Positions 26,918 through 62,639 of a stretch of DNA of 64,000 nt are shown here, one piece after another; positions within the stretch are counted from its first letter, which is position 1; the number at the start of each line of letters is the position of its first letter. The stretch comes from a virus. The stretch lies in IMG/VR virus record IMGVR_UViG_3300032294_001352, positions 23,877-87,876 of that record. One strand, 5' to 3'. Position numbers and translations under genes: made by a program. The notes under the pieces were generated by a model that had not been told where the DNA came from, ran no database searches, and was given only the letters and a program-made list of their open reading frames with translations.

Positions 26918-28072
26918 ATGAGTTTTGCGATTGACATCCGACAGTGGAAGACGGTAGAAGCCTTTGAGGCGCATCTGAATGCACACGATCCTGCTATCTG
27001 TGATTGGGTGCAAGGCATCGTGATTCATCATACGTGGCGACCACTGCCCAGTCAGTGGCGTGGCCGATCGTCGATTGAGGGAATGAAAGCGTACTATGAG
27101 CGGCAGTCACCACCGTGGACTGCTGGACCACACTTGTTCATTGTGACTGGCAGCCCTAATCCGTCTGATGACGGTATCTGGCAGATGACTCCGCTCAACA
27201 TGGTGGGTGTACACGCTACGGTGTGTAATCCAACAACGTGGGGCATTGAAGTGGTGGGTGACTATGATGATGAACCGTGGACATTTTCTACCAAGCAGTT
27301 GGCGGTTGGTGCTGCTGCGGCATTGGCCAAGTGGCGCGGAATCATCATCTCACCTCAGACGGTAAAAGGCCATCGGGATTGTAAGAGCAGCAAGTCATGT
27401 CCAGGCAATGCCATCAACATGCAGCAGGTGCGTGACTGGATTAACGCAGAGATCAATGGCACACCAGCGCGTGAACCAATCACGGCTGACAGTCAGATCC
27501 TTGCGGCACCACGATGCAGCATGGAAACTGCGTTGGATTACATCATGAACCGGAATCCACGGCCTGCGTACACGCTGAGTGATTTCTCTATTCATATCCT
27601 GCCTGCATACTGGCAGTTAGGCAAACTGACTGGTGTTGATCCGTGTATTGCCATTGCCCAAGCAATCCATGAAACGGCCAACTTTAGCAGTTGGTGGTCG
27701 TTGCGCCCACGACGCAATCCTGCTGGGATCGGGGTGACAGGCCAATCTAGCCGAACCGCGCCACATCCTGAGGAAGTCAACAAGTGGGCATATGACAAAG
27801 ACGTGAACCTGTGGAAGTTCGGTTTATCGTTCCCATCATGGCAGGTGAGTGCATTGGCACACATGGGCCGATTATGTGCATACGCAACCAAGCCTGCTGA
27901 ACGCTCACCAGAGCAACAGAAGATTGTAGAACAAGCATTGATGATGCGATCGCTTCCATTGGCCTTACAGGGAAGCGCGCCGGTGCTCTTTGGCCTTAAT
28001 GGGAAGTGGGCTTATCCTGGCACCACGTATGCCCAACGGATTGCTGCCATAGCCACAGAGATGGCATTCTAG
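26918..28072 (+). CDS. Endolysin: N-acetylmuramoyl-L-alanine amidase (Amidase_2) plus glucosaminidase-like domain
   Basis: IVIHHT...PHLF...GVHA...GIEVVG...GHRD...KSCPG zinc-amidase motifs; C-terminal IAQAIHETANF...RNPAGIG...KWA. Confidence 0.85.
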   Translation: MSFAIDIRQWKTVEAFEAHLNAHDPAICDWVQGIVIHHTWRPLPSQWRGRSSIEGMKAYYERQSPPWTAGPHLFIVTGSPNPSDDGIWQMTPLNMVGVHATVCNPTTWGIEVVGDYDDEPWTFSTKQLAVGAAAALAKWRGIIISPQTVKGHRDCKSSKSCPGNAINMQQVRDWINAEINGTPAREPITADSQILAAPRCSMETALDYIMNRNPRPAYTLSDFSIHILPAYWQLGKLTGVDPCIAIAQAIHETANFSSWWSLRPRRNPAGIGVTGQSSRTAPHPEEVNKWAYDKDVNLWKFGLSFPSWQVSALAHMGRLCAYATKPAERSPEQQKIVEQALMMRSLPLALQGSAPVLFGLNGKWAYPGTTYAQRIAAIATEMAF

Positions 28073-28157
28073 CAGCCGGATGCTCCGTGATCAGGCTAAT
28101 AACCATCTGATTCCAACGCGGAAAATCACCAATTTTCTGTGATTCTCAAATTGGTAC

Positions 28158-28186
28158 TTGACAAACTATACATTTTGTCTTACAAT
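28158..28186 (+). promoter_or_regulatory. Sigma70-type promoter for the ncRNA cluster
   Basis: TTGACA-17 nt-TACAAT followed by GACTGACAT, as at 46591 and 60760. Confidence 0.75.
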
Positions 28187-28240
28187 GACTGACATGAGGG
28201 AATGGCGTGTGGGGAGAGAAAAAACCGTGACTGACACTCA

Positions 28241-28480
28241 CGAGTACCTCACACTTAATGGTGAGAGATGGTAGTGGTTGCCATCCAGATGTGTTGACTC
28301 GCAATCAACATGTTGACACCAGCCGTAGGTGGTGCGACCACCTCAGCAGACCTACAAGCATTATCGGACTCCGTGCGCTGGTAATGTGGAAGGCGGGCAC
28401 CTCGAAGAAAGAAAGCGTCGCACAGGAACTGGTACTCGGTATTACACTGAGTAGGTGGGCAACCTGCCAAATAGCCCACC
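28241..28480 (+). ncRNA. Putative structured non-coding RNA
   Basis: Closing stem GAGTACC (28241)/GGTACTC (28431) encloses several hairpins; followed by a GGTGGGC/GCCCACC hairpin; no convincing CDS. Confidence 0.4.
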
Positions 28481-28485
28481 GTTAT

Positions 28486-28618
28486 GGGGATGCTCTGGTA
28501 TTGACAGGGTGATTTGGCAATCAGTAGCGATAACTGCCCACGGGAAGACGCGAACGCTGCCTGCCTTTAATGGTGATAATCATTCTGGACTGCGGTTCGA
28601 CTCCGCACATCTCCACCA
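28486..28618 (+). ncRNA. Miniature tmRNA-like RNA (tRNA-like domain, 133 nt)
   Basis: Acceptor GGGGATG/CATCTCC-A-CCA with G3.U; T arm TGCGG-TTCGACT-CCGCA; helix CAGGGTGATT/AATCATTCTG; no D stem. Confidence 0.8.
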
Positions 28619-28620
28619 AT

Positions 28621-28782
28621 GCTCAGGTTTCGTTTGGGAAGTTTGACAGGGAGCGCAATCCTAGGATGTTATCGCCGATCCGGCCAATCGGATAGTGGAA
28701 TCCCGACGGGGATAGAGTGAGAAATCATCCGCTCACCAAATTGCGCCCACATACGCAGGTTCAATTCCTGCCCTGAGCACCA
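28621..28782 (+). ncRNA. Second tRNA-like RNA (162 nt) with acceptor stem, T arm and a large branched insert
   Basis: GCTCAGG/CCTGAGC-A-CCA; T arm GCAGG-TTCAATT-CCTGC; helix GCGCAAT/ATTGCGC. Confidence 0.7.
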
Positions 28783-28818
28783 CTACTACTATTACTCGCT
28801 GACCAGTAAGGAGCGCCC

Positions 28819-29133
28819 ATGAACAAGCACAAGTCACTGAATGAGATGATGGCTGAGAAAAACATCAAGATGGTCGTGAATAATTTCATGGTTGGTGATT
28901 TATCCGTGCGCGTGGTGGCCAACAACATGGGCCATGACTTTGAGCGGATGGCGAACAACCAGTGCAACATGGCCATCTACATCATCCGTGAGCGTGATTG
29001 GGATGAGGAGCAAATCATCATGCTTGGTGGTGAGTCACTGGTGATGGATATTGAAGACCATGACCAAGTGCTGGTCCATGCAAAACTGTTGCTTAGCCGT
29101 CTGATGTTGTCGCTGCTTGATGCAATACAGTAG
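28819..29133 (+). CDS. Hypothetical protein
   Basis: TAAGGAG RBS; 104 aa. Confidence 0.65.
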   Translation: MNKHKSLNEMMAEKNIKMVVNNFMVGDLSVRVVANNMGHDFERMANNQCNMAIYIIRERDWDEEQIIMLGGESLVMDIEDHDQVLVHAKLLLSRLMLSLLDAIQ

Positions 29134-29142
29134 GAGGCGCGT

Positions 29143-29331
29143 ATGAAGATTGTTTCGTGCTCATGCCCACAGTGTCGCGCGTTGATGCGTTCAAAGCATG
29201 AAAGCCGTGCATTGACCAAAGTCACGCGCGCTGCTCGCCGAAACGCAAAGCAGGCCGTTGATCGCATGACACGCACACGCAACTGGGATATGGACATCCC
29301 GACCAAAATCAGCATCCCACCTATTGGCTAA
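29143..29331 (+). CDS. Small basic protein with CxCxxC
   Basis: GGAGG RBS; 62 aa. Confidence 0.6.
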   Translation: MKIVSCSCPQCRALMRSKHESRALTKVTRAARRNAKQAVDRMTRTRNWDMDIPTKISIPPIG

Positions 29332-29350
29332 TCAATCAGCCTGATCGACC

Positions 29351-29378
29351 ATCCCTCACATGATACGTGGGGGATTTT
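29351..29378 (+). terminator. Probable intrinsic terminator
   Basis: ATCCCTCAC...GTGGGGAT hairpin followed by TTT. Confidence 0.5.
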
Positions 29379-29419
29379 GGCGTGTAATCAAATTGTCATC
29401 TTATTTTCAATAAAAACAC

Positions 29420-29476
29420 TTGCAAATTATATAGTTTTCTGCTAGAATGATTTTAGGTTGAATTGCAAGTAAGGAG
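29420..29476 (+). promoter_or_regulatory. Repeated phage promoter with leader and RBS
   Basis: TTGCAA-17 nt containing TATATAGTTT-TAGAAT...AGGTTGAA...TAAGGAG. Confidence 0.75.
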
Positions 29477-29483
29477 AACGCTT

Positions 29484-29768
29484 ATGACCATGACTGTTAC
29501 ACCAGCCCAAATCGCTCGCCAAGCCTTCGTGGCTGCCCAGGTGGCCATCATCCGCGCTAGCGAGCATCCTCAGGCATCACGATGGGTGAATGCTGTTATC
29601 CGCGCCGGTGAGGCCTTTGCGACGCGCGCTGGTCGCAAGGAGATGGCTGAGCGTTGCGCCACGTACAAGACCACGGTGGCCTCATGTGAGTGTGAGGCGA
29701 GTTCCCATGGCAATCCATGTAAGCACCGTGCGTTCGTTCGCTTGGTCCAGAAGTGGGAGGAAGAATAA
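29484..29768 (+). CDS. SWIM zinc-finger protein
   Basis: CECEASSHGNPCKH (CxC...CxH). Confidence 0.7.
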   Translation: MTMTVTPAQIARQAFVAAQVAIIRASEHPQASRWVNAVIRAGEAFATRAGRKEMAERCATYKTTVASCECEASSHGNPCKHRAFVRLVQKWEEE

Positions 29769-29996
29769 ATGAACTTTGATGTCATGGACTTTTCGATGCG
29801 TGAGATGTGGAGCAAACTGACGATGGATGAGCGTCGTCAGTTGCTCCAAGAGCATAAGATGTGGCCTGGTTTCGTAGAACAAGCACCACGGCCAAGCAAC
29901 CAAGATTGCTCGGCTGAGTTCACCAGTGCTGTGGCGTTGCGTGTCAGTCAGAAGCGGAAAGCAGCAGAAGCCAAAGGAAAAATCAATGCCAAATGA
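29769..29996 (+). CDS. Hypothetical protein
   Basis: Coupled to the upstream stop (TAAATG). Confidence 0.55.
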   Translation: MNFDVMDFSMREMWSKLTMDERRQLLQEHKMWPGFVEQAPRPSNQDCSAEFTSAVALRVSQKRKAAEAKGKINAK

Positions 29997-30231
29997 GCAA
30001 CCACCACTACGCACACCCACGACCACGGATTTTGCGCTAGTCAACTTCGCTCGAAACTTAATCGCAGACATGGTAGTGCCTCTCAGCCATGAGGGGCTTC
30101 TACTTGAATCTGTGGTCCGTCTGGTGGCCAAAGAAGAGGGATTGGATGACAATCACACGGCCTTTCTGATAGCCCTAGCACTAGGGAATGTCACTGAGGA
30201 TAATTGGGAATCAACCTACATACCGTTTTAG
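29986..30231 (+). CDS. Hypothetical protein
   Basis: AAAGGA RBS; overlaps the upstream stop. Confidence 0.5.
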   Translation: MPNEQPPLRTPTTTDFALVNFARNLIADMVVPLSHEGLLLESVVRLVAKEEGLDDNHTAFLIALALGNVTEDNWESTYIPF

Positions 30232-30242
30232 GAGGATCACGG

Positions 30243-30455
30243 ATGCAACACTGGGGATGGATAGGAAATTACACCATTGTACGCACTGGCAGCCACGCAG
30301 GCGCAATGGTCAACGGTTCTGTGACGTTTGATCCACAGATGTGTATGTGGAAGTGGCTAGTGATGGCAGATAATGTCAAAGTGCGTGAGGGAATGACGGT
30401 GACTGCGCGGATGGCCGTGCAACAGGTTGATACGTATTTTGAGGAGGAAGTGTAA
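30243..30455 (+). CDS. Hypothetical protein
   Basis: AGGAGG RBS. Confidence 0.55.
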   Translation: MQHWGWIGNYTIVRTGSHAGAMVNGSVTFDPQMCMWKWLVMADNVKVREGMTVTARMAVQQVDTYFEEEV

Positions 30456-30652
30456 TGACCACGATGAAAGACAAGACTAAAGGCGGCAACAAGAAGTTGA
30501 AGACCATTCAGATGACACCAGACTTTGAGCGGAATCTGGCGATCCTGCGTAAGTTTGGCCACACGACGGATGCTAAGGCCATCCGTGACGCTGTGAAGAC
30601 GTTGGCTATGGAGCGCACTGGGGAGTTGACGATTACCAAGCGACAGGGATAG
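30455..30652 (+). CDS. Small DNA-binding protein (RHH-like)
   Basis: KTIQMT...LAILRKFG..TDAKAIRDAV pattern. Confidence 0.5.
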   Translation: MTTMKDKTKGGNKKLKTIQMTPDFERNLAILRKFGHTTDAKAIRDAVKTLAMERTGELTITKRQG

Positions 30653-30655
30653 ACC

Positions 30656-30982
30656 ATGAGCGTGTTGAAAGATGAGTGCGGCAAAGATGTAGCCATTGTG
30701 GATCGGAATGAACACGGTGGCTACATTGTACGCTTCCAAGTGCATGGCCTTTGGTTTGACATCTCATCGGTGTGCAACCAGCACAATGATTTGATGTATC
30801 AACGCTGCATAGAAAAAGCCATGCTCCAACTAGAATGGTATGCAGGATGTGATGACGTGCTGAACCGACGTGCGGCACTGCAGATCAAGTCAATCACCAC
30901 TGGACCAGTACCACCAATGATGAGCAGCACCGTGATGAGCGTGCTGAGCATGTGGCGAGATTTTCAGCGATCAGGTAGGTGA
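30656..30982 (+). CDS. Hypothetical protein
   Basis: 108-aa ORF in the operon. Confidence 0.5.
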   Translation: MSVLKDECGKDVAIVDRNEHGGYIVRFQVHGLWFDISSVCNQHNDLMYQRCIEKAMLQLEWYAGCDDVLNRRAALQIKSITTGPVPPMMSSTVMSVLSMWRDFQRSGR

Positions 30983-31076
30983 TTTGCAAAAAATGCAATT
31001 CATTTGCGATTATCGCAATTCATTTGCAAAAAGTGCAAAGAAACATTTGCATTTTATATATTGTATGTGCTATACT
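30983..31076 (+). promoter_or_regulatory. TTGCAAA-rich region with palindrome TTGCGATTATCGCAA and promoter for the replication operon
   Basis: Palindrome at 31004-31018; TTGCAT-18 nt-TATACT. Confidence 0.6.
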
Positions 31077-31126
31077 ACGAACGTGGTCATGCACCACTAG
31101 TCAACTAATCAGTTAAGGAGAAAGCC

Positions 31127-31858
31127 ATGAGTTTCGAGATGTTGCGTGAACCGTTCCACCCTGACCAGTTGGAGTTCAAGGTGGAAGTCAAGAGCAAAGA
31201 CGGCCAGAAAGGCCAAGCCAGCACCTACGTTGATCCTCGGCGCTATCAGGAGCGTCTGGATGATGCGTTTGGTCCGGAGAACTGGGATGTGGAATATCGT
31301 CCACTTGGGGCTAACGTGAGTGGTTCAGTCACTGAGGATGGCGAGAAACGCAGTGCATCAGGCGCGGTTATCGCACGTCTGACCATCCGCTACAACGGCC
31401 AAACCGTGGTCCGTGAGGAAGTGGGAGAGTTTGGTGGTGAGGGAAAGTCACAGTATCCAACGGCTACAGCCCAAGCGTTTAAGCGTGCGTGTGCTGCCTT
31501 TGGCCTTGGTCGCTACTTGTACTTCCTGCCAAAGATGTGGGGAGCAATCAACCAGTATCGCCAGTTTGAGGAAGCCGAGATTGAGCGCTTCAAGAAGATG
31601 TGCCCAGCACCGGCCAAAAGCCCACAGAACAAGCCACAAGCCACGGAAAAGGCACAACCTGCACGCACCTACCCACAAGGCCAGGAAAGCGTACAGCAGG
31701 CCAAAGCAGTGGCACGCTTGGGGCAGTTGCTCCAACAGGCTGATGACATGGGAGCGCATTTCTCATACGTGCCAGAAAACTGGCGCACGCTCGGCTACCA
31801 AGAGTTGGTCCAACTTGGTCAGCGGATTGGGAAAGATCTTGCAGACATGAAAGAGTAG
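31127..31858 (+). CDS. Sak/Rad52-family single-strand annealing protein
   Basis: LREPF...YVDPRRYQERLDDAFGPENW...AFKRACAAFGLGRYLY. Confidence 0.9.
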   Translation: MSFEMLREPFHPDQLEFKVEVKSKDGQKGQASTYVDPRRYQERLDDAFGPENWDVEYRPLGANVSGSVTEDGEKRSASGAVIARLTIRYNGQTVVREEVGEFGGEGKSQYPTATAQAFKRACAAFGLGRYLYFLPKMWGAINQYRQFEEAEIERFKKMCPAPAKSPQNKPQATEKAQPARTYPQGQESVQQAKAVARLGQLLQQADDMGAHFSYVPENWRTLGYQELVQLGQRIGKDLADMKE

Positions 31859-31861
31859 ACC

Positions 31862-32563
31862 ATGATTCCAAGTCAGTTATACGCAGATATACCTGACTTG
31901 ACGGATACGGAGTTGCGCATCATCCTCGTGGTGATTGGCCACCAAGGCATCATGACGATGGGTGATGTGCAACAACGTACAGGGAGAAATCGACAGGTGT
32001 ATGACGCAGTGAAGTCATTAGAGCAAAAGGGATGGTTAATGCGGCACAAAGTGGCATCGCTTGGTCCAGTGGCGTGGCGTTGGGAAATCCTCCGCTACAC
32101 CGTTGCACCGATCACCCCACCAGTGCCAGAACCACCTGCACTGACTGAACCACCAGTCATCACGCAGGCAGCAGAAGATGCGGCAGTGAGTGTGAGTACC
32201 GTGGAATCCACTCCGGTGAATCCACCAAAACCATCCAAGGCCAAAGCCAAAGCACCAAAGCCGGTGACAGCACAACACCACCCAGCCGTGGTGGCATACA
32301 TGGAAATCACCCGTCGTCGACCGACACATGCGGCAGCAGAGTTAATTGCAGCGCACGTTGCTGATGTGGATCGTTGGCGTGAGGCCGTTAAGTCGTACAT
32401 TGTGCGTGGATGGAATCCCATGAATGTCAACGGAATGATCCAAGTCTACAATGGTGATTTGGTTGTGAAGCGCGGGCGGCATAGCACAATCATTCCCCAC
32501 CAATCACCAGACGTGGCAAAGGCAGCATGGGATGAGTATCTGAGCAAGGGGGAAGATGAATGA
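31862..32563 (+). CDS. Replication initiator (N-terminal wHTH, Pro-rich linker)
   Basis: LTDTELRII...VYDAVKSLEQKGWL; directly upstream of the DnaC-like gene. Confidence 0.7.
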   Translation: MIPSQLYADIPDLTDTELRIILVVIGHQGIMTMGDVQQRTGRNRQVYDAVKSLEQKGWLMRHKVASLGPVAWRWEILRYTVAPITPPVPEPPALTEPPVITQAAEDAAVSVSTVESTPVNPPKPSKAKAKAPKPVTAQHHPAVVAYMEITRRRPTHAAAELIAAHVADVDRWREAVKSYIVRGWNPMNVNGMIQVYNGDLVVKRGRHSTIIPHQSPDVAKAAWDEYLSKGEDE

Positions 32564-33279
32564 CAATGGTTGACGTGCAATGCTGTGATGGGAGCGGATG
32601 GTACAAAAAGGAAGTTCCGTTTGGCCATCCTGACTGGGGAAAGTTGTTTCGGTGTGAGTGCGGCAAGGCTGGCGATCCGGAAGCGCGGATGAATGCGTTG
32701 CATGATGCACTCAAATCCTATGGCGAGTGTCGGTTTGACAACTGGTTTACCGATCGACCACTAGAACCAAACACATGGGGTGGCGTGACGTACAAGACGG
32801 AAGATCAGTACAAGGCCTTACGGATTGCTACCAAGCGCGCCAAAGCCTATGCTGACGATCCTGAGGGAATGCTCTTTATCTTTGGCAGTTTCGGTGCTGG
32901 TAAGACGCACTTGGCTGCAGCCATAGGCTACGCATGTGCAGAGCGGAATCTGCGTGTGCAGTATCACAACATCACTAATCTCGTAAGCAAACTGCGGCAA
33001 GCAGCAGGTGACTTTGATGTGGAGTCAATCATGCAACCACTGTTGACTGCTGACGTGCTGATCTTGGATGACATCGGTGCTGAGGAATCAATGTCAGCCT
33101 TTATCCAGTCACAAATCTATCGCTTGATTGATGAGCGATTGCATTTGGCCACCGTTATCACGTCAAATCTGGATGTGCAGTCACTCACGGACAAGATCGG
33201 TGGGCGCACGCAATCTCGATTACAAATGGCCCAGACCATCTGGTTGCCAGTATCTGATTACCGGAAGCAGAAGAAGTAG
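32560..33279 (+). CDS. DnaC/IstB-like AAA+ helicase loader
   Basis: Walker A GSFGAGKT, Walker B LILDDIG, VITSN; N-terminal zinc motif. Confidence 0.9.
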   Translation: MTMVDVQCCDGSGWYKKEVPFGHPDWGKLFRCECGKAGDPEARMNALHDALKSYGECRFDNWFTDRPLEPNTWGGVTYKTEDQYKALRIATKRAKAYADDPEGMLFIFGSFGAGKTHLAAAIGYACAERNLRVQYHNITNLVSKLRQAAGDFDVESIMQPLLTADVLILDDIGAEESMSAFIQSQIYRLIDERLHLATVITSNLDVQSLTDKIGGRTQSRLQMAQTIWLPVSDYRKQKK

Positions 33280-33280
33280 C

Positions 33281-34465
33281 ATGGACATTCAACGCAAAGC
33301 CAAAATTGCGGCACAACAGACGTTGTTTGATGTGCAACCAAACTGGAAAGACTTCTGGTGGGATATGCCTGCCTTTGAGCAGCAGGATGCAAGAGCAACC
33401 AAGACCATCAGTGTTCACTTCCTGACCATGGATGACTTCTATGAGTTTTGTGCGGCACTTGATGTGAAGTTGACTCCGAAGTCACTCTCACTCTGGTACC
33501 CACCACAGCAACGGATGAATGGTGAGTATCTGTACACTGGACCACAGGTAGATGCACGCTATCCGGTGTGCATTCCATCCAAGGGGCGCTGGGATAACCA
33601 CAAGACTGCGGCAGCACTTGATCGGATGGGTGTGTCATACCGGTTCTTTGTAGAAGACACAGAGGCTGATGCGTACATCAACGCACTTGGGGCTGAGCGT
33701 GTGGTGGTCATGCCATTCCATGATCTTGGCCAAGGCAGCATTCCGGCCAGAAACTTTATCTGGGAATGGGCAGTCACGCATGGATATAGGCGGCATTGGG
33801 TGATGGATGACAACATCGTCAACTTCAAGCGGATCACTAACAATCGACGAGTGAGAGTTCGCACTGGCATGTTTTTCCGTGCCATTGAGGATTTCGTGGA
33901 TCGCTATGACAACATTGCGTTGGCTGGTCCGCACCATGACGGTTTCGTCAAAGATCGCTATCCTCACAAGCCACCAGTCATCTTTAATCGCCGCATCTAC
34001 TCATGCATCCTGATAGACTCCACACTTCCATACCGGTGGCGTGGAAAGTACAACGAGGATACCGATTTGAGTCTGCGTGTGCTAAAAGATGGCTACTGCA
34101 CAGCCTTGTTTGCTGCGCTCACCATGCACAAGCCCACGACTGCTGGCGGCAAGGGGAAACCGATGAAAGGGGGAAACACCGATACCGTTTATAACACGAC
34201 TGATTACCGATTGGCCTTTGCTCAGTCACTGAAAGAGCAACACCCTGACGTGGTGGAAGTGACGTGGAAGTTTAATCGCTGGCACCACCATGTGGATTAC
34301 ACACCGTTCAAGAACAACCAGCCTATACTCAGAGCGGACATCACGCCAAAGCCTGGCACCAATGAGTATGAGATGCGTTTAGTCCGTGCGGCAAGTGGTG
34401 ACATTGACGTGGATCTTGATGACGATATTGATACTGACATGATAGAAGATGAGGATGACGTATGA
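33281..34465 (+). CDS. TAGT/GREB1-like DNA glycosyltransferase (GT-A fold)
   Basis: YPVCIPSKGR, ARNFIWE, HWVMDDNI, RIYSCILI, WRGKYNEDTDLSL, KGGNT motifs; start taken at ATG 33281. Confidence 0.8.
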   Translation: MDIQRKAKIAAQQTLFDVQPNWKDFWWDMPAFEQQDARATKTISVHFLTMDDFYEFCAALDVKLTPKSLSLWYPPQQRMNGEYLYTGPQVDARYPVCIPSKGRWDNHKTAAALDRMGVSYRFFVEDTEADAYINALGAERVVVMPFHDLGQGSIPARNFIWEWAVTHGYRRHWVMDDNIVNFKRITNNRRVRVRTGMFFRAIEDFVDRYDNIALAGPHHDGFVKDRYPHKPPVIFNRRIYSCILIDSTLPYRWRGKYNEDTDLSLRVLKDGYCTALFAALTMHKPTTAGGKGKPMKGGNTDTVYNTTDYRLAFAQSLKEQHPDVVEVTWKFNRWHHHVDYTPFKNNQPILRADITPKPGTNEYEMRLVRAASGDIDVDLDDDIDTDMIEDEDDV

Positions 34466-35562: not shown

Positions 35563-35620
35563 TCAGTGAATGCATGGGTGGCTACGCTGCATGGTGTGGC
35601 CACCCACAGGAGCAATACAT

Positions 35621-36574: not shown

Positions 36575-36852
36575 TGGAACTTAGACAAGTAGCAAAGCGC
36601 ACGGCCACGTTTTACGAGTATCTGTATCACTACAAGGGATATGATGTGATCGTGTGGAACGCCAAGATAGCAAATGCGGCACCGACAAACCAGAGCAGCA
36701 AAGATGACTGGTCATTTTCCGTAGTCAAGCATGAGCGTCTGCACATCTCGCTACCGAACAGTGGCTTCCGTACACGCAAAGAAGCGCTCAGTGCTATTCC
36801 GGCCTATGTGGAGCAAGTGATTGCGTTTTATGCGGCAATGAAAGTAAGATAA
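36571..36852 (+). CDS. Hypothetical protein
   Basis: Overlapping stop/start with the upstream gene. Confidence 0.55.
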   Translation: MMELRQVAKRTATFYEYLYHYKGYDVIVWNAKIANAAPTNQSSKDDWSFSVVKHERLHISLPNSGFRTRKEALSAIPAYVEQVIAFYAAMKVR

Positions 36853-36859
36853 GATGCAA

Positions 36860-36904
36860 CAAAAAATGGCGCACCCCTGCTGGTGGTACAGGAGTGCGCC
36901 TTTA
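36860..36904. terminator. Bidirectional terminator
   Basis: A7-TGGCGCAC...GTGCGCC-TTT between convergent genes. Confidence 0.7.
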
Positions 36905-36909
36905 GTGTA

Positions 36910-37263: not shown

Positions 37264-37392
37264 ACGAATCCCTCTCTTTCACTTCAACCTACGTCTATCA
37301 TATCACCATTTGATATAGTGTGCAATACAATTTATTGACAAATACAACATGGTGTAGTACTATGCCAAAGAGTTTACTGAAAGGAGTACCGG

Positions 37393-37866: not shown

Positions 37867-37877
37867 GGAGGAACACC

Positions 37878-38564: not shown

Positions 38565-38591
38565 GGAATTGATTTTGATGCAATATTTTAT

Positions 38592-38647
38592 TTGACAAAG
38601 TATATAGTTTTGTGCTATGATCATCTCAGGTTGATTTGAGTAAGGAG
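38592..38647 (+). promoter_or_regulatory. Repeated phage promoter with leader
   Basis: TTGACA-AAGTATATAGTTT-...TATGAT...AGGTTGATT...TAAGGAG. Confidence 0.8.
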
Positions 38648-38655
38648 AGTAGCCT

Positions 38656-47098: not shown

Positions 47099-47099
47099 T

Positions 47100-56225: not shown

Positions 56226-56669
56226 TTAAAACAAGTAAAACTTTGCAGGATCTTGGTTGAAGTAGAGCAGCGTTTCCTGTGCCGCACTCTCCCATCCATA
56301 GCAGACCACAGCACGCCAGCCGGATTGCTGAAAGCGCGCCTGCCACCGTGTCTGCTCCTTACTCGCTCGATTGGTTCCCACCTTTAACTCAATGGCCAAT
56401 CCCACGTACCGTGTTGGTGCAACGCACTTGTTGGCACTCAGATACAATGCCGCACTCTTGTCATCCATCGGCACTGCTGATGGCACAGGGATCAAGATGT
56501 CTGGTACACCAGCCTTAACACCCTGTGCTTTGAGTTGTGCAGCCACCGTGATATGGCGATGGCCACCGTTGGGCACATGGAATGCCCACGCTACTTCTGG
56601 TACGCTTCCAGCGATATGTGCGTAGAAGCGAAAGAGATTCGTCTGTGCAACACCTTCTAATTGCCGCAT
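56226..56669 (-). CDS. VRR-NUC domain nuclease
   Basis: FHVPNGG...GVKAGVPD...IELK...Q..W. Confidence 0.85.
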   Translation of the reverse strand: MRQLEGVAQTNLFRFYAHIAGSVPEVAWAFHVPNGGHRHITVAAQLKAQGVKAGVPDILIPVPSAVPMDDKSAALYLSANKCVAPTRYVGLAIELKVGTNRASKEQTRWQARFQQSGWRAVVCYGWESAAQETLLYFNQDPAKFYLF

Positions 56670-56674
56670 GGCCG

Positions 56675-56896
56675 TTACTCACTCTTTGGTGATGTTTCGG
56701 TATTCAAGTTGGGCAGTGACGGAATCCCATCTGGGCGCTGAGCAGATCGCTGAATAAAGTCAATGATTGCGTTGTTGACCACCATTGACTTGTTGGTCGC
56801 CCACCCATTCTTGCATTGCCGCTCAACAAACGTGTTCAGCATCTCAATGCACTCTTTTGTTACCGTGACAGATAGCACCTCTCGTTGACGTGGCAT
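56675..56896 (-). CDS. RHH-like DNA-binding protein
   Basis: LSVTV...L......NKSMVVNNAI. Confidence 0.55.
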   Translation of the reverse strand: MPRQREVLSVTVTKECIEMLNTFVERQCKNGWATNKSMVVNNAIIDFIQRSAQRPDGIPSLPNLNTETSPKSE

Positions 56897-56899
56897 GTG

Positions 56900-57331
56900 T
56901 TACTCCTTATCTTCTTCTAGTGCTGACTGCACATAGTGCAGCGCACGCGCTAACGCATCAATTTGGTTCTGGTGATCCTGAATCTGTTGTTGAAGCACAT
57001 GCCGCAGTCGCTTCTTTGCGTCAATCTCCGTACCACCAGACGCAGTCACAGTCCATGACTCTGACTTGACTGGATCTTCCACGGCTACCGTGGCGATGTG
57101 AAGTGAAGTAGTGGCGTTTGCTGCCTTTGCAGCGCGACGCACAATCTCACTGAGTGGAATTAAGTGCGTGACATCTTTGACGTGTACAGTCATCGTAAGA
57201 TCCCATTCATTGTTGACACAGGTACAAAAGTTACTGCACTCACCACACAGATTGCAGTTGCACCACATAATATGAATGCCGCATGTTTCACACGGCCAGT
57301 CATTGTCATATGGTCCGTGTAGTTCTTCCAT
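56900..57331 (-). CDS. Hypothetical protein with a Cys-rich N-terminus
   Basis: CETC...CNCNLCGECSNFCTC; start uncertain. Confidence 0.45.
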   Translation of the reverse strand: MEELHGPYDNDWPCETCGIHIMWCNCNLCGECSNFCTCVNNEWDLTMTVHVKDVTHLIPLSEIVRRAAKAANATTSLHIATVAVEDPVKSESWTVTASGGTEIDAKKRLRHVLQQQIQDHQNQIDALARALHYVQSALEEDKE

Positions 57332-57393
57332 GTGCGTGTGCTCCGTGGAAGCGTGGGGAGTGCGTTGCACACTCCCCACAATCCGCTCCGTGC

Positions 57394-57951
57394 TTACCAG
57401 CCGTACTTTCGATTGATTGACTCCATGGTGCCAGACATCTTGTTGGCCAGTGAACCGGCTTCTTTGAGTTTCTCAGTTGACGTAGCAAAATCTCCACGCG
57501 CCATTGCTCGGAACGCATCCTCAGTAACGTCTAAGACTTCAGCAACGCGCTCATGGATGCTCATTGCATCATCATCACAGATGGGTGCCGCAACAGCCGT
57601 GTACATCAACTTCACATCCTCAAAACGCTTGTAGGCAGTCACCAAGTCAGCATTGGCCACCATCTGCATTGATTCCGTGAGTGCATTGATAACCACCATT
57701 GTGTCAGTCTTCCATGCATACACGTCATCCTTACACGCAGCAAACGTGTCTACGGTTGGCCGTGGCTTGACCGTTGGGCGCTCCGTTGGTTGCTCCGTCG
57801 GCATGACGGCCACTTCTGCTGCCTGATCAGCCACCGTGGATGAATTGTTGGTTGCTGAACTTGGACCACCAACTGCACGCACGATCACACCCAACAAACA
57901 ACATGACACCAGCACCAATCCCACAATTCCCCACTTCAATCCCTTACGCAT
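57394..57951 (-). CDS. Membrane-anchored/exported protein
   Basis: N-terminal TM, PT linker, helical domain; minus-strand TTGACA...TATGAT promoter at about 58029-58000. Confidence 0.65.
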   Translation of the reverse strand: MRKGLKWGIVGLVLVSCCLLGVIVRAVGGPSSATNNSSTVADQAAEVAVMPTEQPTERPTVKPRPTVDTFAACKDDVYAWKTDTMVVINALTESMQMVANADLVTAYKRFEDVKLMYTAVAAPICDDDAMSIHERVAEVLDVTEDAFRAMARGDFATSTEKLKEAGSLANKMSGTMESINRKYGW

Positions 57952-58267
57952 CGGTTTCTCCCTGCACACTGGTGTGTGCCTAAATCATCAACCCATGCGT
58001 ATCATACACTGTATGACAAAATATGTCAAATGCAAATGACACAAAAAACGCAGGATCTATCTGCGTGTGTTGCTCAGCCTCAGATTTGCACTTTTTGCAC
58101 ACGTTTTGCGATTATTGCAAAAATTGCGATTATTGCAAAACCCTTCCCCCCCTTACTCCTTTTTCTCTCCCCATCCCTTTAAAAAACCCTGCCCCACTCT
58201 TTTTCCTCGATCCCCCCCAACCCCCCACGGAGAGTGTACACTCTCCGTGGCCACGTTGTCAAATCAC

Positions 58268-58996
58268 CTACAATGCTGGTTGCATGATGTTTGCTTGTAA
58301 TCGCGCCTCAGCAGCCTCAACACCACGCACTGCCGCACGCTCTTCCCAGAGCAAGAATCTCCGTTGCGCTTCAAGATCACGCACATTTGTCACAGCACCT
58401 TGTCGTGTATATCGAATGATTGCCTCATCAATATCTCTGATAAGATTCCGCGCTCGCTGTGCTTTTAGGTGACTATCATATAATAACTTAATGGTTTCTG
58501 ATGCAATACGAGTTGGCACTGGTTCAAACGTATGCGTGTATGGAGTGTTAGACATGCGATTAGAAAATCGCACTTGACCAGATGCAAACATATCTGCTTC
58601 CCTATTCATCATGTCTACGGTAGTACGATTAAGGCCATTTGGATTTGCCGCCTCACGACGCAAGGTATCACTCAATGTGAGAATGGCTTGTGATGGATTC
58701 ACGCTTGGTGGAATATCAGTTCGCTCTCTCGTATATTCATCTCGTTGTTCACGATCAAAATCACGCATTGCCGCATACATGTCAGCATCCTGCACATTCT
58801 TCAAGAGAGTACCAACAAAGTTAGGAAAACCGGCTGCACGCAGTTCACGGATTGTTTCATTGACATCTGGCATGTCATTTTGTTTGGTTGGTGCTCCAAG
58901 TGGTACTGGTTCTGCTAGTGGTTGCGATGCAGTTGGTGCTGTAGGTGTTGCTGCACTTACGCCACCTGATCCTGCTTTCTTTCGATTGCGCCCCAT
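58268..58996 (-). CDS. MGRNR-tag protein 6
   Basis: MGRNRKKAGSGGV; GGAG RBS. Confidence 0.75.
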   Translation of the reverse strand: MGRNRKKAGSGGVSAATPTAPTASQPLAEPVPLGAPTKQNDMPDVNETIRELRAAGFPNFVGTLLKNVQDADMYAAMRDFDREQRDEYTRERTDIPPSVNPSQAILTLSDTLRREAANPNGLNRTTVDMMNREADMFASGQVRFSNRMSNTPYTHTFEPVPTRIASETIKLLYDSHLKAQRARNLIRDIDEAIIRYTRQGAVTNVRDLEAQRRFLLWEERAAVRGVEAAEARLQANIMQPAL

Positions 58997-59167
58997 GGTT
59001 AATCTCCATATCACTTAGGCCATTTGTCATCATTGTATAGGTATCATCAAGAGCAAGTGCGTAAAACCACTGATGCACCAGACTACTTGCGTAATCCAGT
59101 GCATCAGTGGAGGCTGACGTGCAAGGGGGAAACCTTGATGTCACTACCATCATAGCACAAATTGCCG

Positions 59168-60334
59168 CTATCGGTTATAAATAGGAATCTGAAGTGAACC
59201 AATATTGGTTGGGATTTGACTGGCCAAATAGTTGGCCTCACGTCGTTCTGGCGTGTCTGGCAATCTTGCATTTAGGTTGCGTTTTCCACGCTCAATTCGC
59301 TGCATGGTCTTTGCACGCACTTGGCGCATCCGTTGTTGCTCAATTTGCAACGCCATAAAGTTTGCCGCAGTTAAAGGCCTATTCATGAGTGCAAAGTTGC
59401 GTTTAATTTGGTCGTCAATTCCGTTAAGCAACCGGAGTGCGCCATTGAAATCTCTCATATCCTGTGGTCCACGTAACTCAGAAACGGTGATGTTTCGCTT
59501 CTGGTTCGCATAGCCATCACGCTGTGCGTACAGTGCAACACGATCCATTGGCTGTGGAAGTACGCCACCAGCAGCCGTGTATGCTTGCCGCATTCGATCA
59601 ACGTCACGGAGATTGCTTGTGATTTGATTCCACTGATCTTGGAGTGTTTTCATGGCCTGCCAATTCTCACGAGTAGGATTGGCAATGTACGTCTGCTGTG
59701 CATCCACTAAGAAGTGTGCCGCAGGTAAAAATGATTGGTTGTAGGCAATACTTGGATATGCATCTACCGTCTGCTTTTTGAATCCGGTGTTTGATTTCCA
59801 CCGTGCCATTGCGTTGTCAGGATCGGGGAAATCAATGGTATACGTAGGATTTTCAAACGGACCACCAGATGCGTTGAGGAAATACTCATTGCCACTTGAA
59901 TCGCGGATAGGAATGATGGTAAGGCCTTTGTTACGCATCAGTGCAGCAGCACGCGAGAGTTCCATCTCAGGTGCTGGATTGGCCAAGGCCTTGGGAATCT
60001 CATCACCCATGAGGCGCACGTACTCATCTGCCGCACGGCCAATGCGTTCCCAATCAAACTCACCATCAGCGTCACGCATCTGATCGGTGCTAATGGTGGT
60101 GCGTACACCGTCAATGTCTACGTCAAATGACGTGGATGAATAGTCATACTCTTCAGCATCACCACGATCTATTCCACGGATGTACGGTATAACCGTCATC
60201 TGACGGCCATCTGGCAATCGTTTACTGATGCCACCTGCTTCAGAAGCAGTTTGATTGAAATCCCATGGGATAGATTGTACTGACTGAGCAACAATCACCT
60301 CACCAGTTCCTGCTTTGCGTCGATTACGGCCCAT
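59168..60334 (-). CDS. MGRNR-tag protein 7
   Basis: MGRNRRKAGTGEV; TAAGGAG RBS. Confidence 0.8.
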   Translation of the reverse strand: MGRNRRKAGTGEVIVAQSVQSIPWDFNQTASEAGGISKRLPDGRQMTVIPYIRGIDRGDAEEYDYSSTSFDVDIDGVRTTISTDQMRDADGEFDWERIGRAADEYVRLMGDEIPKALANPAPEMELSRAAALMRNKGLTIIPIRDSSGNEYFLNASGGPFENPTYTIDFPDPDNAMARWKSNTGFKKQTVDAYPSIAYNQSFLPAAHFLVDAQQTYIANPTRENWQAMKTLQDQWNQITSNLRDVDRMRQAYTAAGGVLPQPMDRVALYAQRDGYANQKRNITVSELRGPQDMRDFNGALRLLNGIDDQIKRNFALMNRPLTAANFMALQIEQQRMRQVRAKTMQRIERGKRNLNARLPDTPERREANYLASQIPTNIGSLQIPIYNR

Positions 60335-60440
60335 ACGCGTATCTCCTTACTTGCTCACTATTTGTATCATACAAGACACAACAAGCGCTCCTGAGAGCGC
60401 CTGTGCGTGCCTATGTGGTTGTGGGTGATTGTGACGTGTG

Positions 60441-60701
60441 CTATCCGAGGATAGAGTCACGCCAACGCTCCACACGGACATCTTCCACCAAGTCCACGTC
60501 ACCACGCGCCACTTCCTCACCAGTGGCAACACTAGTGGCTACCCATGAGAATTGCCAGTGAGCGTAGCCGTTGTAGGTGAACACGGCCAACGTGGCCTGT
60601 GCACCAATGTAACTGGTGTATGATGGCATGATCATGCCAAACTCACGGATGACCACACCGTCAAGACCAATCACTTTTACGAGAATCTTGTTCATGGGCA
60701 A
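60441..60701 (-). CDS. Hypothetical protein
   Basis: TAAGGAG RBS; likely start ATG 60695. Confidence 0.6.
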   Translation of the reverse strand: MPMNKILVKVIGLDGVVIREFGMIMPSYTSYIGAQATLAVFTYNGYAHWQFSWVATSVATGEEVARGDVDLVEDVRVERWRDSILG

Positions 60702-60760
60702 CTCCTTACTGAATTAACTCTATGTCAGTCATTATAATGCAAACTATATACTTTTGTCAA
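60702..60760 (-). promoter_or_regulatory. Repeated phage promoter with leader
   Basis: Near-identical to the 46591 copy (TTGACAAAAGTATATAGTTTGCATTATAATGACTGACATAGAGTT). Confidence 0.85.
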
Positions 60761-61017
60761 GTAGCATTTTGTGTCATTCCAAGCAACACGTCACGCGTGG
60801 ATATGAAAATGGTTTCCATGGTTGCGTTGTTGAACCGCTGCGTGATCCACTGGCCGTCAATGCATCGAACCATCACGATGGCCAACACATTGTCATGGTG
60901 ACGTGCTTCATACGCAAAGGGATTGTCGCCATTGACAATCCCACGCGCAAACGTTGCTCCGTGAAATCCATGCTGTTGCGTGATCGCCAGATTCAGCCGG
61001 AACTCTAACTCAGTCAT
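60757..61017 (-). CDS. Hypothetical protein
   Basis: Coupled TAATG junction. Confidence 0.55.
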   Translation of the reverse strand: MTELEFRLNLAITQQHGFHGATFARGIVNGDNPFAYEARHHDNVLAIVMVRCIDGQWITQRFNNATMETIFISTRDVLLGMTQNAT

Positions 61018-61355
61018 TACTTGGCCTCTTTTTTGGCAGCGTCTTTGGCACGCTGTTGGCAGTGCTTCATAAAGATGATACCGTCAGCAATCACACGCGC
61101 CACGTCATCACTGATGACATCCATGACAATACCGTCAATGTCACCAGTCACCATGTTGATGGTGCCACGCATCGTGCCAGCACTGACACCACGGAAGCCA
61201 CCAACCACCACGGTAGCGTTGTCAACGCCAGCAGGAACAAACGCACGCACGCTCACGCTCACCTTGTTATCCTGCATGGTCATATCCACGCGGATAATCT
61301 GATTGATGATGCGCCCATTGGCGCGGACCACGTCATGTGAGAAAAACATAGGCAA
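61017..61355 (-). CDS. Hypothetical protein
   Basis: AAGGAG RBS after the promoter. Confidence 0.6.
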   Translation of the reverse strand: MPMFFSHDVVRANGRIINQIIRVDMTMQDNKVSVSVRAFVPAGVDNATVVVGGFRGVSAGTMRGTINMVTGDIDGIVMDVISDDVARVIADGIIFMKHCQQRAKDAAKKEAK

Positions 61356-61414
61356 CTCCTTGCTTGTAAAATCAACCTAGGAGCATTCTAGCACGAAACT
61401 ATATACTTTGTCAA
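61356..61414 (-). promoter_or_regulatory. Repeated phage promoter with leader
   Basis: TTGACA-AAGTATATAGTTT...TAGAAT...AGGTTGATT...AAGGAG. Confidence 0.8.
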
Positions 61415-61562
61415 ATTGAATATTGCATTTGATATAACACATAGAACCAGCAGGATTGGTCAGATCCTGCCTAGCGTTGCACTATGGAGCGTTGAAGAGG
61501 AAATTGGGGTATTCATGTACACAGATCTTCTGTGCGATTCCAGTATAGCAAAAAACTGCTAT

Positions 61563-61620
61563 TTGACAAAGCGTCATACATACTATATAATTCTTCCTAG
61601 GTTGATGATTCAGTAAGGAG
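61563..61620 (+). promoter_or_regulatory. Promoter with the AGGTTGAT leader
   Basis: TTGACA-17 nt-TATAAT...TAGGTTGAT...TAAGGAG. Confidence 0.75.
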
Positions 61621-61626
61621 CGACAG

Positions 61627-61839
61627 ATGAGCAACGACAACGCGTGGATTGAGTGGAATGACATGATGGCCAACCAGCCAGCAGAGCAACCGGTGGAAGT
61701 GCCTCAGGATGTGCTTGACGGACACAACATTCCGGTAGAGATCTCTGGTGACGCACCAGTGGCTGATGATGACGCTGCTGACGTGGATTGGGATGACGCT
61801 GCGTTTGATGCATTCTTTCGAGCAAAGGGGGGCAAATAA
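61627..61839 (+). CDS. Small, highly acidic protein
   Basis: 70 aa, D/E-rich with aromatic residues. Confidence 0.65.
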   Translation: MSNDNAWIEWNDMMANQPAEQPVEVPQDVLDGHNIPVEISGDAPVADDDAADVDWDDAAFDAFFRAKGGK

Positions 61840-62232
61840 ATGAACACGAAACCATCACATGACATCTACACAGACGGCCGGTACTGCATGAGTCTGTGGG
61901 AGGCAACACCGGCCCAAATCCGCACCTGCATTTTCGATCTCACTGAGTTCAGTGATGACATTGTGGCCAAAGTGGCTGACACTGACGAAGTGGTAGACGC
62001 GCTCTCCAACTATGGCGATGACTGGGAAGACTGTGAGCAGGATCACAACTACGTTGGTGGGGATAAGTATCCCGATCCTTTGGATTCCATTGGAAGCCTC
62101 CGTGATGATGATGACGGTGAGTTCTTCATGGATGACTTGGCCTTTGACGGAGATGCGTTGGAGTTCGCTGATCAGGCCTACAAGGCAGCGCGTGAAACGC
62201 AGACGTTCAAGACACCGGCTGACTTCCGCTAG
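61840..62232 (+). CDS. Highly acidic protein
   Basis: 130 aa, D/E-rich. Confidence 0.65.
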   Translation: MNTKPSHDIYTDGRYCMSLWEATPAQIRTCIFDLTEFSDDIVAKVADTDEVVDALSNYGDDWEDCEQDHNYVGGDKYPDPLDSIGSLRDDDDGEFFMDDLAFDGDALEFADQAYKAARETQTFKTPADFR

Positions 62233-62242
62233 GATTGATCTC

Positions 62243-62276
62243 AAATCCCCCACCAGATAGTCTGGTGGGGGATTTT
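62243..62276. terminator. Bidirectional terminator
   Basis: AAATCCCCCACCAGA/TCTGGTGGGGGATTT. Confidence 0.75.
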
Positions 62277-62282
62277 GTGTGC

Positions 62283-62465
62283 CTACTTCTTGCGTGGCTG
62301 CTTGGCCATCATATCCTGAATATCCTTAACACTCACATGGTCACGCACAGACTTTTCTGATGACACGTTGCGCATCAGTGGTGGACCATCCAACGTCACG
62401 TACTTCTGCTTAGCCCCACTCTTACCAGTCTTGCTCGCCTTACTTGGCTTCTTGTTGTCCGTCAT
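62283..62465 (-). CDS. Small basic protein
   Basis: AAAGGAG RBS before ATG 62465. Confidence 0.55.
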   Translation of the reverse strand: MTDNKKPSKASKTGKSGAKQKYVTLDGPPLMRNVSSEKSVRDHVSVKDIQDMMAKQPRKK

Positions 62466-62639
62466 GCGATCGCTCCTTTCTAGTGCCGCATTCATTCTAC
62501 CATGGTATATAAAAAACATATATTCCGTTGCAATTATTGCAAAAACGGTATATAGTTTTCCCATATTCAGTTGCACTTTTTGCAAAAACAGTATATAGTT
62601 TGGCAATATTCCGTTGCAAAAAATGCAAAGGCTTTGCGA

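Follow-up and report, generated by a model that had tools for sequence, protein, structure and literature searches.

Genome and motif-free gaps

It is considered here how the heptamer TGCSGCA is distributed in a 64,000-nucleotide stretch of viral DNA (positions 23,877 to 87,876 of the IMG/VR record IMGVR_UViG_3300032294_001352), which we call the window and by whose positions the coordinates below are given. The window forms the final 64 kb of the analysed record, an 87,876-bp virus genome with a 123-bp terminal repeat, belonging to a freshwater phage that is siphovirus-like and has a tape-measure protein of 1658 aa. Over about three quarters of this genome the hexamer TGCCGC recurs in a quasi-regular array, and the 11 zones that are free of the array hold all of the strong sigma-70-like promoters, the first small genes and a tmRNA-like RNA. 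Gene models are crude calls of the longest open reading frame (ORF). Expected word counts come from dinucleotide shuffles, low-order Markov models or synonymous-codon shuffles, as stated with the result; the window islands, as set for word counts, comprise 11,031 bp; and the control word in the hexamer tests is TGGCCA, the second most enriched word of the genome. With 20 kb of the phage, megablast against the phage collection gave no match, the terminase and the methylase have distant relatives only in that collection, and the clamp protein has no close relative among the genome contigs, giving hence no clue to the host.

The original prediction held that four intervals of the window are free of TGCSGCA, and exact matching finds the same four gaps with zero copies inside. 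Measured from site to site, they are the longest in the window, running from 27502 to 30677 (3175 bp), from 37689 to 40422 (2733 bp), from 46247 to 48943 (2696 bp) and from 60029 to 62484 (2455 bp). With a mean spacing of 410 bp and an exponential distribution of distances, 0.39 gaps of at least 2455 bp would be expected (155*exp(-2455/410)), and four are seen. A further gap of about 1.1 kb had been claimed over the sak gene and is also found: it runs from 30871 to 32040 (1169 bp) and spans a Rad52/Sak-like gene at 31127-31858, with a promoter of the family described below just upstream.

The first island (27509-30676) is free of TGCSGCA over its whole length and of the hexamer from 27509 to 30482, and holds the end of the endolysin gene, two promoters, small ORFs and a tmRNA-like RNA of 133 nt (28486-28618, plus strand), which scores 68 bits with Rfam RF00023, where the gathering score is 47; for the window, ARAGORN reported no tmRNA or tRNA gene. 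The motif-free part of the sak gap (30878-32039) is 1.17 kb long. The second island (37696-40421) contains a DUF5662 gene, small ORFs and three promoters. The third (46254-48942) contains two promoters and six or seven small ORFs, some with diverged syntenic homologues in relatives. The fourth (60036-62483) has three promoters and small ORFs on both strands. Between the sak gap and the second island lies an array zone with the replication genes (32040-37695), where the hexamers stand about 140-400 bp apart, nearly all of them with GCGGCA on the sense strand.

Three heptamer gaps similar in size to that over sak, which were not in the earlier account, run from 8213 to 9593, from 54945 to 56280 and from 62484 to 63574. 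At the hexamer level the first two are filled by non-palindromic TGCCGC and fall below 560 bp, and of the third only 62780 to 63358 (578 bp) is left. Counted by the hexamer, the genome has 11 gaps of at least 560 bp, which make up 26.0% of its length. Seven of them are in the window (27503-30483, 30872-32041, 37690-40422, 46248-48943, 57586-58331, 60029-62484 and 62780-63358) and four are outside it, where they reach 4.3 kb. The short hexamer-free gap of 745 bp at 57592-58330 surrounds a promoter-like site on the minus strand (58029-58001).

The constrained hexamer and its spacing

In the window there are 156 exact copies of TGCSGCA, against 15.49 expected from dinucleotide shuffles (standard deviation 4.11, maximum 30), with none of the 100 shuffles reaching 156. 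With 195 copies it is the commonest 7-mer genome-wide, and against the expectation for non-island DNA the count is 195 to 16.5. The constrained unit is, however, not the heptamer but the asymmetric hexamer TGCCGC (GCGGCA on the other strand). It occurs 284 times genome-wide, against 59.5-64.8 expected from low-order Markov models, and 195 of the 284 form the palindrome TGCSGCA, the seventh base being A in 195 copies, C in 44, T in 40 and G in 5. The base before GCCGC is T in 284 of 292 cases and the base after TGCCG is C in 284 of 298. The words that differ at the 5' base are nearly lost (AGCCGC 0 against 39 expected, GGCCGC 0 against 47, CGCCGC 8 against 40), as are those that differ at the 3' base (TGCCGT 1 against 84, TGCCGG 4 against 51, TGCCGA 9 against 34) and TACCGC (1 against 32), while words changed at one of the three inner positions are about as frequent as expected. 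Put by class, the only outer variants tolerated are those of the TGCCGCB class, with 89 copies; VGCCGC has 8 and TGCCGD 14, each against about 125-170 expected.

Most copies lie within genes, where they are read as T|GCS|GCA and specify Ala-Ala. Synonymous-codon shuffles of 65 array genes yield 50.5 +/- 6.2 hexamers and 16.4 heptamers, whereas the genes themselves hold 229 and 155. The hexamer rule is seen in all three frames and on both strands, and it thus acts on the DNA and not on the protein. Among the 271 hexamers inside called genes, TGCCGC is on the template strand in 187 and on the sense strand in 84; for the non-palindromic copies, 72 have the template orientation and 11 the sense orientation. 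In the replication, lysis and methylase operons (15620-37866 and 54108-63999) almost all sites have GCGGCA on the sense strand; in the tail and packaging genes (1964-15573 and 48642-54023) the orientation is mixed.

The second constraint is on distance. Over the whole genome none of the 283 distances between neighbouring hexamers is below 104 bp, for which random placement gives a probability of about 6e-73. The histogram of neighbour distances is empty below 100 bp, has its peak at 160-220 bp and has a tail that ends by 560 bp; the 273 gaps below 600 bp have a mean of 240 bp and a coefficient of variation of 0.40, and the fitted gamma distribution begins at 101 bp. The rule applies to neighbours on the same strand and on opposite strands alike. 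The control word TGGCCA has no such minimum, its shortest gap being 21 bp.

The surroundings of the sites were also considered. Within 30 bp of the hexamers, GGCC is depleted to 0.52x (51 against about 98), GATC to 0.59x (39 against about 67) and GCGC to 0.63x (40 against about 64), with the other 12 four-base palindromes at 0.77x-1.19x and AGCT absent from the genome; GCAGC shows no depletion there. This hints at a footprint beside the hexamers. No clear preference at +1 or +3 that would make a Mom-type target context was found around the final A.

Promoters and the array-free zones

The whole genome was scanned for TTGACA and TATAAT with a 16-18-nt spacer and at least 11 of 12 matches. All 15 near-consensus sigma-70-type promoters so found are inside the 11 hexamer gaps (circular-shift P = 0.0036), and 8 of the 11 gaps hold at least one. 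The original prediction had proposed a partition of the genome into marked and unmarked zones tied to promoters and had called for gap lengths to be tested against promoter positions; the circular-shift result, together with the avoidance of the hexamer and of its truncated forms in the islands (see below), supports that partition more strongly than was claimed.

Most of the 15 sites belong to one family, whose spacer contains a TATATAGTTT box, whose -10 element is often TG-extended and whose leader is conserved like the family itself. There are 17 matches to TATATAGTTT with at most one mismatch, which amount to about 11 separate places, most of them being scored once on each strand, and all 17 are inside the four long gaps or the gap from 62484 to 63574. 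Measured from the six strict family members, the free zone extends 343-1827 bp upstream and 508-2352 bp downstream, and it thus surrounds the promoters rather than merely following them.

In the first island, a sigma-70-type promoter on the plus strand (28158-28186; TTGACA, 17-nt spacer, TACAAT; 11/12) is upstream of the tmRNA-like RNA, and a promoter of the conserved family (29420-29448, plus; TTGCAA, 17-nt spacer, TAGAAT, TG before the -10) heads the run of small ORFs at 29463-30982. The sak promoter, read directly from the sequence, is of the same family (31047-31076, plus; TTGCAT, 18-nt spacer, TATACT, TG before the -10). The scan gives two conserved early-type promoters on the plus strand in the second island (38592-38621 and 39517-39546) and a third, promoter-like site at its edge, to which we return below. 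Both promoters of the third island are 12/12 consensus sites on the plus strand: the one at 46591-46620 has the TATATAGTTT spacer box, and the one at 48304-48333 precedes the genes for a Mom-like protein, a ParB-DUF4417 fusion, the terminase and the portal. In the fourth island, a consensus promoter on the minus strand (60731-60760, 12/12) heads the leftward operon that ends in the gene of a C5 cytosine methylase; a conserved early-type promoter from the scan is at 61385-61414 (minus) and another consensus promoter at 61563-61591 (plus, 12/12). Promoter type and gene size, the two features by which they are assigned, suggest that the island genes are early genes.

Note also that operator-like TTGCA(N5-6)TGCAA palindromes repeat at 30985-31045, before sak, and at 62528-62620, flanking promoters of the TATATAGTTT family. 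Their position suggests that they may mark a subclass of these promoters that is controlled by a repressor.

Word usage inside the islands

The words related to the motif are scarce in the islands, with TGCSGCA at 0 against 2.6 expected, GCCGC at 1 against 18.6 and TGCCG at 1 against 24.9, and so are the near-cognates VGCCGC (0 against 11.7) and TGCCGD (0 against 18.0). The other words typical of the genome behave there as in the rest of it: TGGCCA has 42 copies against 9.4 expected, TGACGTG 12 against 2.7 and CACGTG 0 against 10.1. When the island proteins are recoded with the codon usage of array genes, 6.1 +/- 2.1 hexamers result (minimum 2 in 200 trials), against 1 observed. The G+C content is 0.498 in the islands and 0.504 in the rest. 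In tetranucleotide usage all gaps together correlate with the rest of the genome with r = 0.927, compared with 0.96-0.98 for blocks of the rest and 0.58-0.69 for the closest relative. Moreover, of four DNA runs whose contigs, all short, were placed on the stretch, another freshwater run covers 30 of 30 bins of 27000-46999, islands included. From the native word usage, the equal G+C and the result of the recoding it follows that the islands have long been part of the genome and that selection acts there against the hexamer and its truncated forms. Selection keeps the hexamer out of the promoter zones.

Relatives of the phage

The relatives are fragments, not complete genomes, and are designated by L-numbers. 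Four of them (L003, L004, L086 and L103) form one lineage, with portal proteins 75-91% identical by tblastn to that of the phage (76% over the aligned full length for L086). In this lineage TGCCGC is the top or nearly the top 6-mer and the array is sparser than in the phage; L086 has 26 hexamers in 14.3 kb, there the top-ranked 6-mer, with a minimum gap of 129 bp. In L087, with a portal 67-70% identical, TGCCGC is again the top-ranked 6-mer and is as dense as in the phage, with 12 copies in 3.1 kb and a smallest gap of 136 bp. The portal genes of different lineages have several hexamer positions in common; by our estimate they are about as many as descent alone would explain, and we claim no purifying selection on single sites. 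At the place of the third island L086 and L103 have a 1653-bp gap. Three ORFs of that island are 32-50% identical to their homologues in relatives, with the neighbouring ParB-DUF4417, terminase and portal at 68-91%.

Beyond this lineage the promoter family and the array part company. In L088 there are 8 hexamers in 40.5 kb, against 11 copies of the control word, and at positions 3652-9908 of that locus there are four promoters of the TTGACA / TATATA-box / TATAAT family. The promoter family is thus shared more widely than the array, since L088 has it and lacks the array; the promoters are accordingly older than the array or independent of it, and the density of the array changes quickly.

Loci with other genes of the phage were compared as well. 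Among 78 newly fetched loci with the ParB-DUF4417 gene, an excess of the hexamer occurs only in the close lineage. Of 80 other contigs with a TET-associated glycosyltransferase (TAGT), none has a comparable excess of TGCSGCA, the highest count being 13. As a separate observation, 4 of these 80 TAGT loci (L059, L051, L043 and L058) each have a dispersed hyper-abundant 7-8-mer of their own, on both strands or mostly on one: ACTTCCC with 54 copies in 18 kb, CTGACAA with 35 in 12 kb, ATTGACG with 34 in 21 kb and TCTAACA with 26 in 21 kb, CTGACAA being followed by T in 31 copies to give CTGACAAT. One of the ParB-DUF4417 loci, L104, was considered as an array and rejected as chance, having 74 hexamers against 70 copies of the control word and gaps down to 87 bp.

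Candidate genes and other unusual words

The phage has several genes from which a factor acting at the hexamer might come. A candidate writer is a C5 cytosine DNA methylase of 549 aa (54108-55757, minus strand; PF00145, E 6e-70), whose closest database relatives are uncharacterised. Its catalytic core is normal, and its variable region of about 320 aa has repeated TL-type units (NISYTLT..D.H twice and TLVPD..TLL twice), which by analogy suggests a multi-target enzyme with several specificities; the multispecific methylases of Bacillus phages are the comparison for so long a variable region. GGCC is nearly absent from L003, L004 and L086 (0, 3 and 4 copies in 4.4, 8.6 and 14.3 kb) and has 496 copies in the phage, a difference that would fit a methylase protecting GGCC. 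A candidate adenine modifier is the Mom-family protein encoded at 48642-49313 (plus; PF25680, E 1.1e-40). It is followed by a candidate with ParB-N fused to DUF4417 (49316-50581, plus), identified by domain match, and a second ParB-N protein of 334 aa is encoded at 35570-36574 (plus), the C-terminal 200 aa of which match no family. The model of the DUF4417 domain is TIM-barrel-like, with a mean pLDDT of 57.5 and no clear relative; TGT and QTRT2 appear among many generic barrels in its fold matches with Z of 5.9-6.6, below the noise level of the tool at about 8, and whole-genome family searches found neither TGT (PF01702) nor QueC (PF06508). A 7-deazaguanine DNA modification of the DpdA/DpdB type would call for a TGT-family transglycosylase and for genes of preQ0 synthesis.

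A TAGT homologue is encoded at 33128-34465 (plus; PF20691, E 2e-38), 20 kb from the methylase gene and not clustered with it. A six-frame search of the whole genome for TET/JBP (PF12851) gave no match at E <= 10, a search that a very divergent enzyme could escape. Further genes encode a VRR-NUC nuclease, a dCTP-deaminase-like protein and an HDAC-family protein, and no Vsr or thymidylate synthase (ThyA) was found in whole-genome family searches.

Some other words are unusual in this genome. Of the restriction-type words, AGCT (0), GAGCTC (0), CACGTG (4 against 111 expected), CAATTG (2 against 40) and GTCTC (3 against 82) are nearly absent from the whole of it and CCCG/CGGG has 39 copies against 232 expected; TGGCCA (154 sites) and TGACGTG (96) are strongly enriched.

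Proposed explanation and its rivals

Three selective forces are needed to account for the distribution: one for many sites, one against sites and near-sites within about 100 bp of another, and one against sites in the neighbourhood of strong promoters, up to a few hundred bp away. As the simplest single cause we propose, tentatively and with a little less than even confidence, that what shows as four gaps belongs to a partition of the whole genome kept up by selection, where a phage factor docks at or targets TGCCGC and hinders promoters. Based on this proposal, the hexamer would be the docking or target site for a phage-specified DNA-binding protein or DNA-modifying enzyme; each site would claim about 100-140 bp and the factor would tolerate no decoys; and the bound or modified state would be incompatible with the use of strong promoters by the host RNA polymerase. 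Sites within about 300-500 bp of promoters would then be selected against because the bound or modified state would block promoter use. We infer the factor that would bind or modify the hexamer, and with it the protein that it may be and the effect that it may have on transcription.

Several observations weigh against this proposal. Firstly, the array and the candidate genes (those of the C5-methylase, the Mom-like protein and the two ParB-like proteins) do not always occur together in the relatives: L086 and L103 carry the sparse array and no Mom gene; in the lineage of L086 and L103 no methylase is found over the 4.5 kb that follow the portal gene, which is where the phage has its own; and the lineage of L088 has the ParB-DUF4417 gene (53% identity in L088) and the same promoter family with no array. 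Secondly, the full hexamer taken alone is only moderately depleted in the islands, with 1 copy against about 6.9 in dinucleotide shuffles and 5.5 +/- 2.2 in synonymous shuffles. Thirdly, promoters and motif do meet in places. The motif copy at 40422 sits in the spacer of the promoter-like site at the edge of the second island (40411-40439, plus), and two weaker promoter-like elements have a motif copy close by, the one at 62549 at a distance of 65 bp and the one at 62592 at 108 bp. In addition, the arrays restart 640-1260 bp downstream of promoters, apparently within the same transcription units, so that early and late are not cleanly separated. Finally, wrapping of the DNA would be expected to leave traces that are not seen: the spacings have no helical phasing (no period of 2.5-30 bp at the 99.9% level), and around the sites the extended signature consists only of A at +7 and weak preferences at +8/+9.

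A more specific form of the proposal would be a sequence-programmed nucleoprotein array, a phage 'chromatin' with one particle or modifying unit per TGCCGC. Each would occupy about 100-140 bp, three quarters of the genome would show a repeat of near 190 bp, and the strong promoters would be particle-free. Such promoters would be comparable to the nucleosome-depleted promoters of eukaryotes, and the array might be assembled ahead of packaging and be carried into the cell on the DNA. We regard this form as unlikely.

A quite different explanation would be a neutral ratchet, where a mismatch-repair bias linked to the methylase makes the motif in old and stable DNA and the islands turn over too fast to gain it. 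Such a ratchet has been proposed for highly iterated palindromes, among them GCsGC, which is reported as hyper-abundant in a cyanobacterium that has GCsGC-specific m5C methylases (Elhai 2015, PMC4390886, in the available parts of that paper), and the phage does encode a C5-methylase. Moreover, the strongest depletions are those of C->T and G->A neighbours (TGCCGT 1/84, TACCGC 1/32), and the genes of the third island are far more diverged from their relatives (32-50% identical) than are the neighbouring genes (68-91%). A ratchet would, however, predict neither the minimum spacing of 104 bp nor the loss of the transversion neighbours AGCCGC and GGCCGC (together 0 against 86 expected), nor the avoidance of truncated forms in the islands. 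TGGCCA, a palindrome of the type that methylases target, is as enriched in the islands as elsewhere, and thus the islands do accumulate such words. With no Vsr-type gene found and with relatives that have the array and no methylase in the 4.5 kb after the portal, we consider that the ratchet has only a small probability.

It can also be supposed that the sites protect the DNA from a host nuclease, as Chi-like attenuators or through a protective modification, that this benefit sets their density, and that the promoter zones are free of them for reasons other than transcription, being for example shielded otherwise. The phage appears to be under heavy restriction pressure, as indicated by the scarcity of AGCT, GAGCTC, CACGTG and CAATTG given above, it has several DNA-modification genes, and its sites form long runs with one orientation; the GCGG core that is present in the motif also occurs in some known Chi sites. 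A Chi site would be recognised by RecBCD or AddAB of the host and be over-represented, with strand skew, in the host genome. Protection does not predict the minimum spacing, the avoidance of near-cognates or the co-location of gaps and promoters, and the orientation tracks the local gene direction and not the genome ends. We therefore hold this explanation to be improbable.

The original prediction had itself offered the alternative that the islands are recent imports which have yet to gain the motif. It has some facts in its favour: the third island has no nucleotide match to L004, the flanks being about 74-75% identical; L004, L086 and L103 lack homologues of the Mom gene and of several island ORFs; and the small early genes of phages are typically mosaic. 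The alternative is largely refuted by the signature of the islands, which is that of the genome itself (VGCCGC, TGCCGD and CACGTG nearly absent, TGGCCA and TGACGTG abundant), with a tetranucleotide correlation of 0.927 to the rest of the genome and 0.58 to the closest relative. It does not agree either with the syntenic homologues that three ORFs of the third island have in L004, L086 and L103, or with the coverage of every bin of 27000-46999 by the other freshwater run. We take it to be very improbable.

The remaining explanation, that islands low in Ala-Ala and richer in non-coding DNA exclude an Ala-Ala-encoding motif as a coding artefact, can draw on the T|GCS|GCA frame of most copies and on the counts of Ala-Ala dipeptides (22 against 35 expected in island genes, 265 against 203 in array genes, where the excess follows more simply from selection for the motif) but is contradicted by the island word counts and the codon shuffles, the rule holding in all three frames and on both strands, the recoded island proteins still giving 6.1 +/- 2.1 hexamers where 1 is observed, and the G+C being the same in the islands and the rest, so that we give it hardly any credence.

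Comparison with known systems

A partition maintained by selection would have a likeness in concept to nucleoid occlusion by Noc and SlmA, where many dispersed sites mark most of a genome and a functional zone is left free. Noc is a ParB relative with a helix-turn-helix and 16-bp sites, and the comparison with the phage is one of concept. That a glycosylated base can stop RNA polymerase is known from base J, a transcription barrier in trypanosomatids.

Nick-associated motifs are a second kind of dispersed phage word, the nicks of T5 being one further case. Those of phages tf and Rembedalsseter have 9-13 copies per 45 kb, all on one strand, and are described in the available parts of the source as short, enriched and conserved across a phage lineage, mostly coding, unevenly distributed and of unexplained function (PMC11780129), all of which recalls the present motif. 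By contrast, the hexamer has 284 copies on both strands, rather than about ten on one strand, together with a spacing rule and avoidance of near-cognates.

The phage also resembles those with hypermodified DNA, in that it encodes a C5-methylase and a TAGT-family glycosyltransferase, the pair of genes that characterises a hypermodification cluster, as well as ParB-like proteins. According to the portions of these reports available to us, the C5-methylase (C5-MT)/TET/glycosyltransferase (GT) pathways of phages mark short GpC-type contexts and the phage T-dioxygenases NTG or NTC (Burke et al. 2021, PMC8256090; bioRxiv 2023.12.21.572611; O'Toole et al. 2026, PMC13229309); the context of the methylase confines the marks, so that the motif sets which DNA is marked. 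The difference is that the contexts in those portions are GpC, NTG and NTC and not a word of 6-7 bp, that no TET/JBP domain was found in the present genome, and that motif enrichment, a spacing rule and promoter exclusion are not among the features that those portions report.

The closest known kind is that of the highly iterated palindromes (HIP) of cyanobacteria, namely HIP1, GCGATCGC, and GCsGC, the alternate HIP of Cyanothece PCC 7822 (Elhai 2015, PMC4390886; Xu et al. 2018, PMC5861425; both as far as the accessible text goes). TGCSGCA is likewise a short GC-rich palindrome that is over-represented many-fold, mostly within genes, as HIP are by tens of times, and its core GCSGC is the reported alternate HIP itself. 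In both cases a C5-methylase gene is in the same genome, the enzyme of the phage being a candidate writer; and in both the function is unexplained and selection on the distribution along the DNA is argued for, in the case of HIP in the parts of those papers used here. The differences are as follows. The unit in the phage is an asymmetric hexamer. One-off variants of HIP1 are common, mainly at the first or last base (Elhai 2015, PMC4390886, in the parts available), and nearly absent in the phage. For HIP1 the reported periodicity is one of 18-94 kb, with a randomisation control that required just 8 bp between sites, compared with a minimum of about 100 bp and a mode of about 190 bp in the phage. 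Exclusion from promoter zones is not among the HIP features in the text available, and the carrier is a cyanobacterial chromosome in the one case and a phage genome in the other. Text searches of the literature listed no description of a spaced motif array or of motif-free promoter zones in a phage, though the supplementary tables of Elhai and of Xu et al. may hold data on spacing and neighbours.

If the partition is functional, the phage sequence itself would encode which DNA is marked or coated and which is open to the host polymerase at the start of infection, and this would amount to a simple kind of epigenetic zoning, written into the sequence of a virus. The spacing rule is in addition a clear statistic by which further cases can be sought in metagenomes. 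It also bears on the long-standing puzzle of HIP1, as it is the distribution of the phage motif, and not only its abundance, that is tightly constrained.

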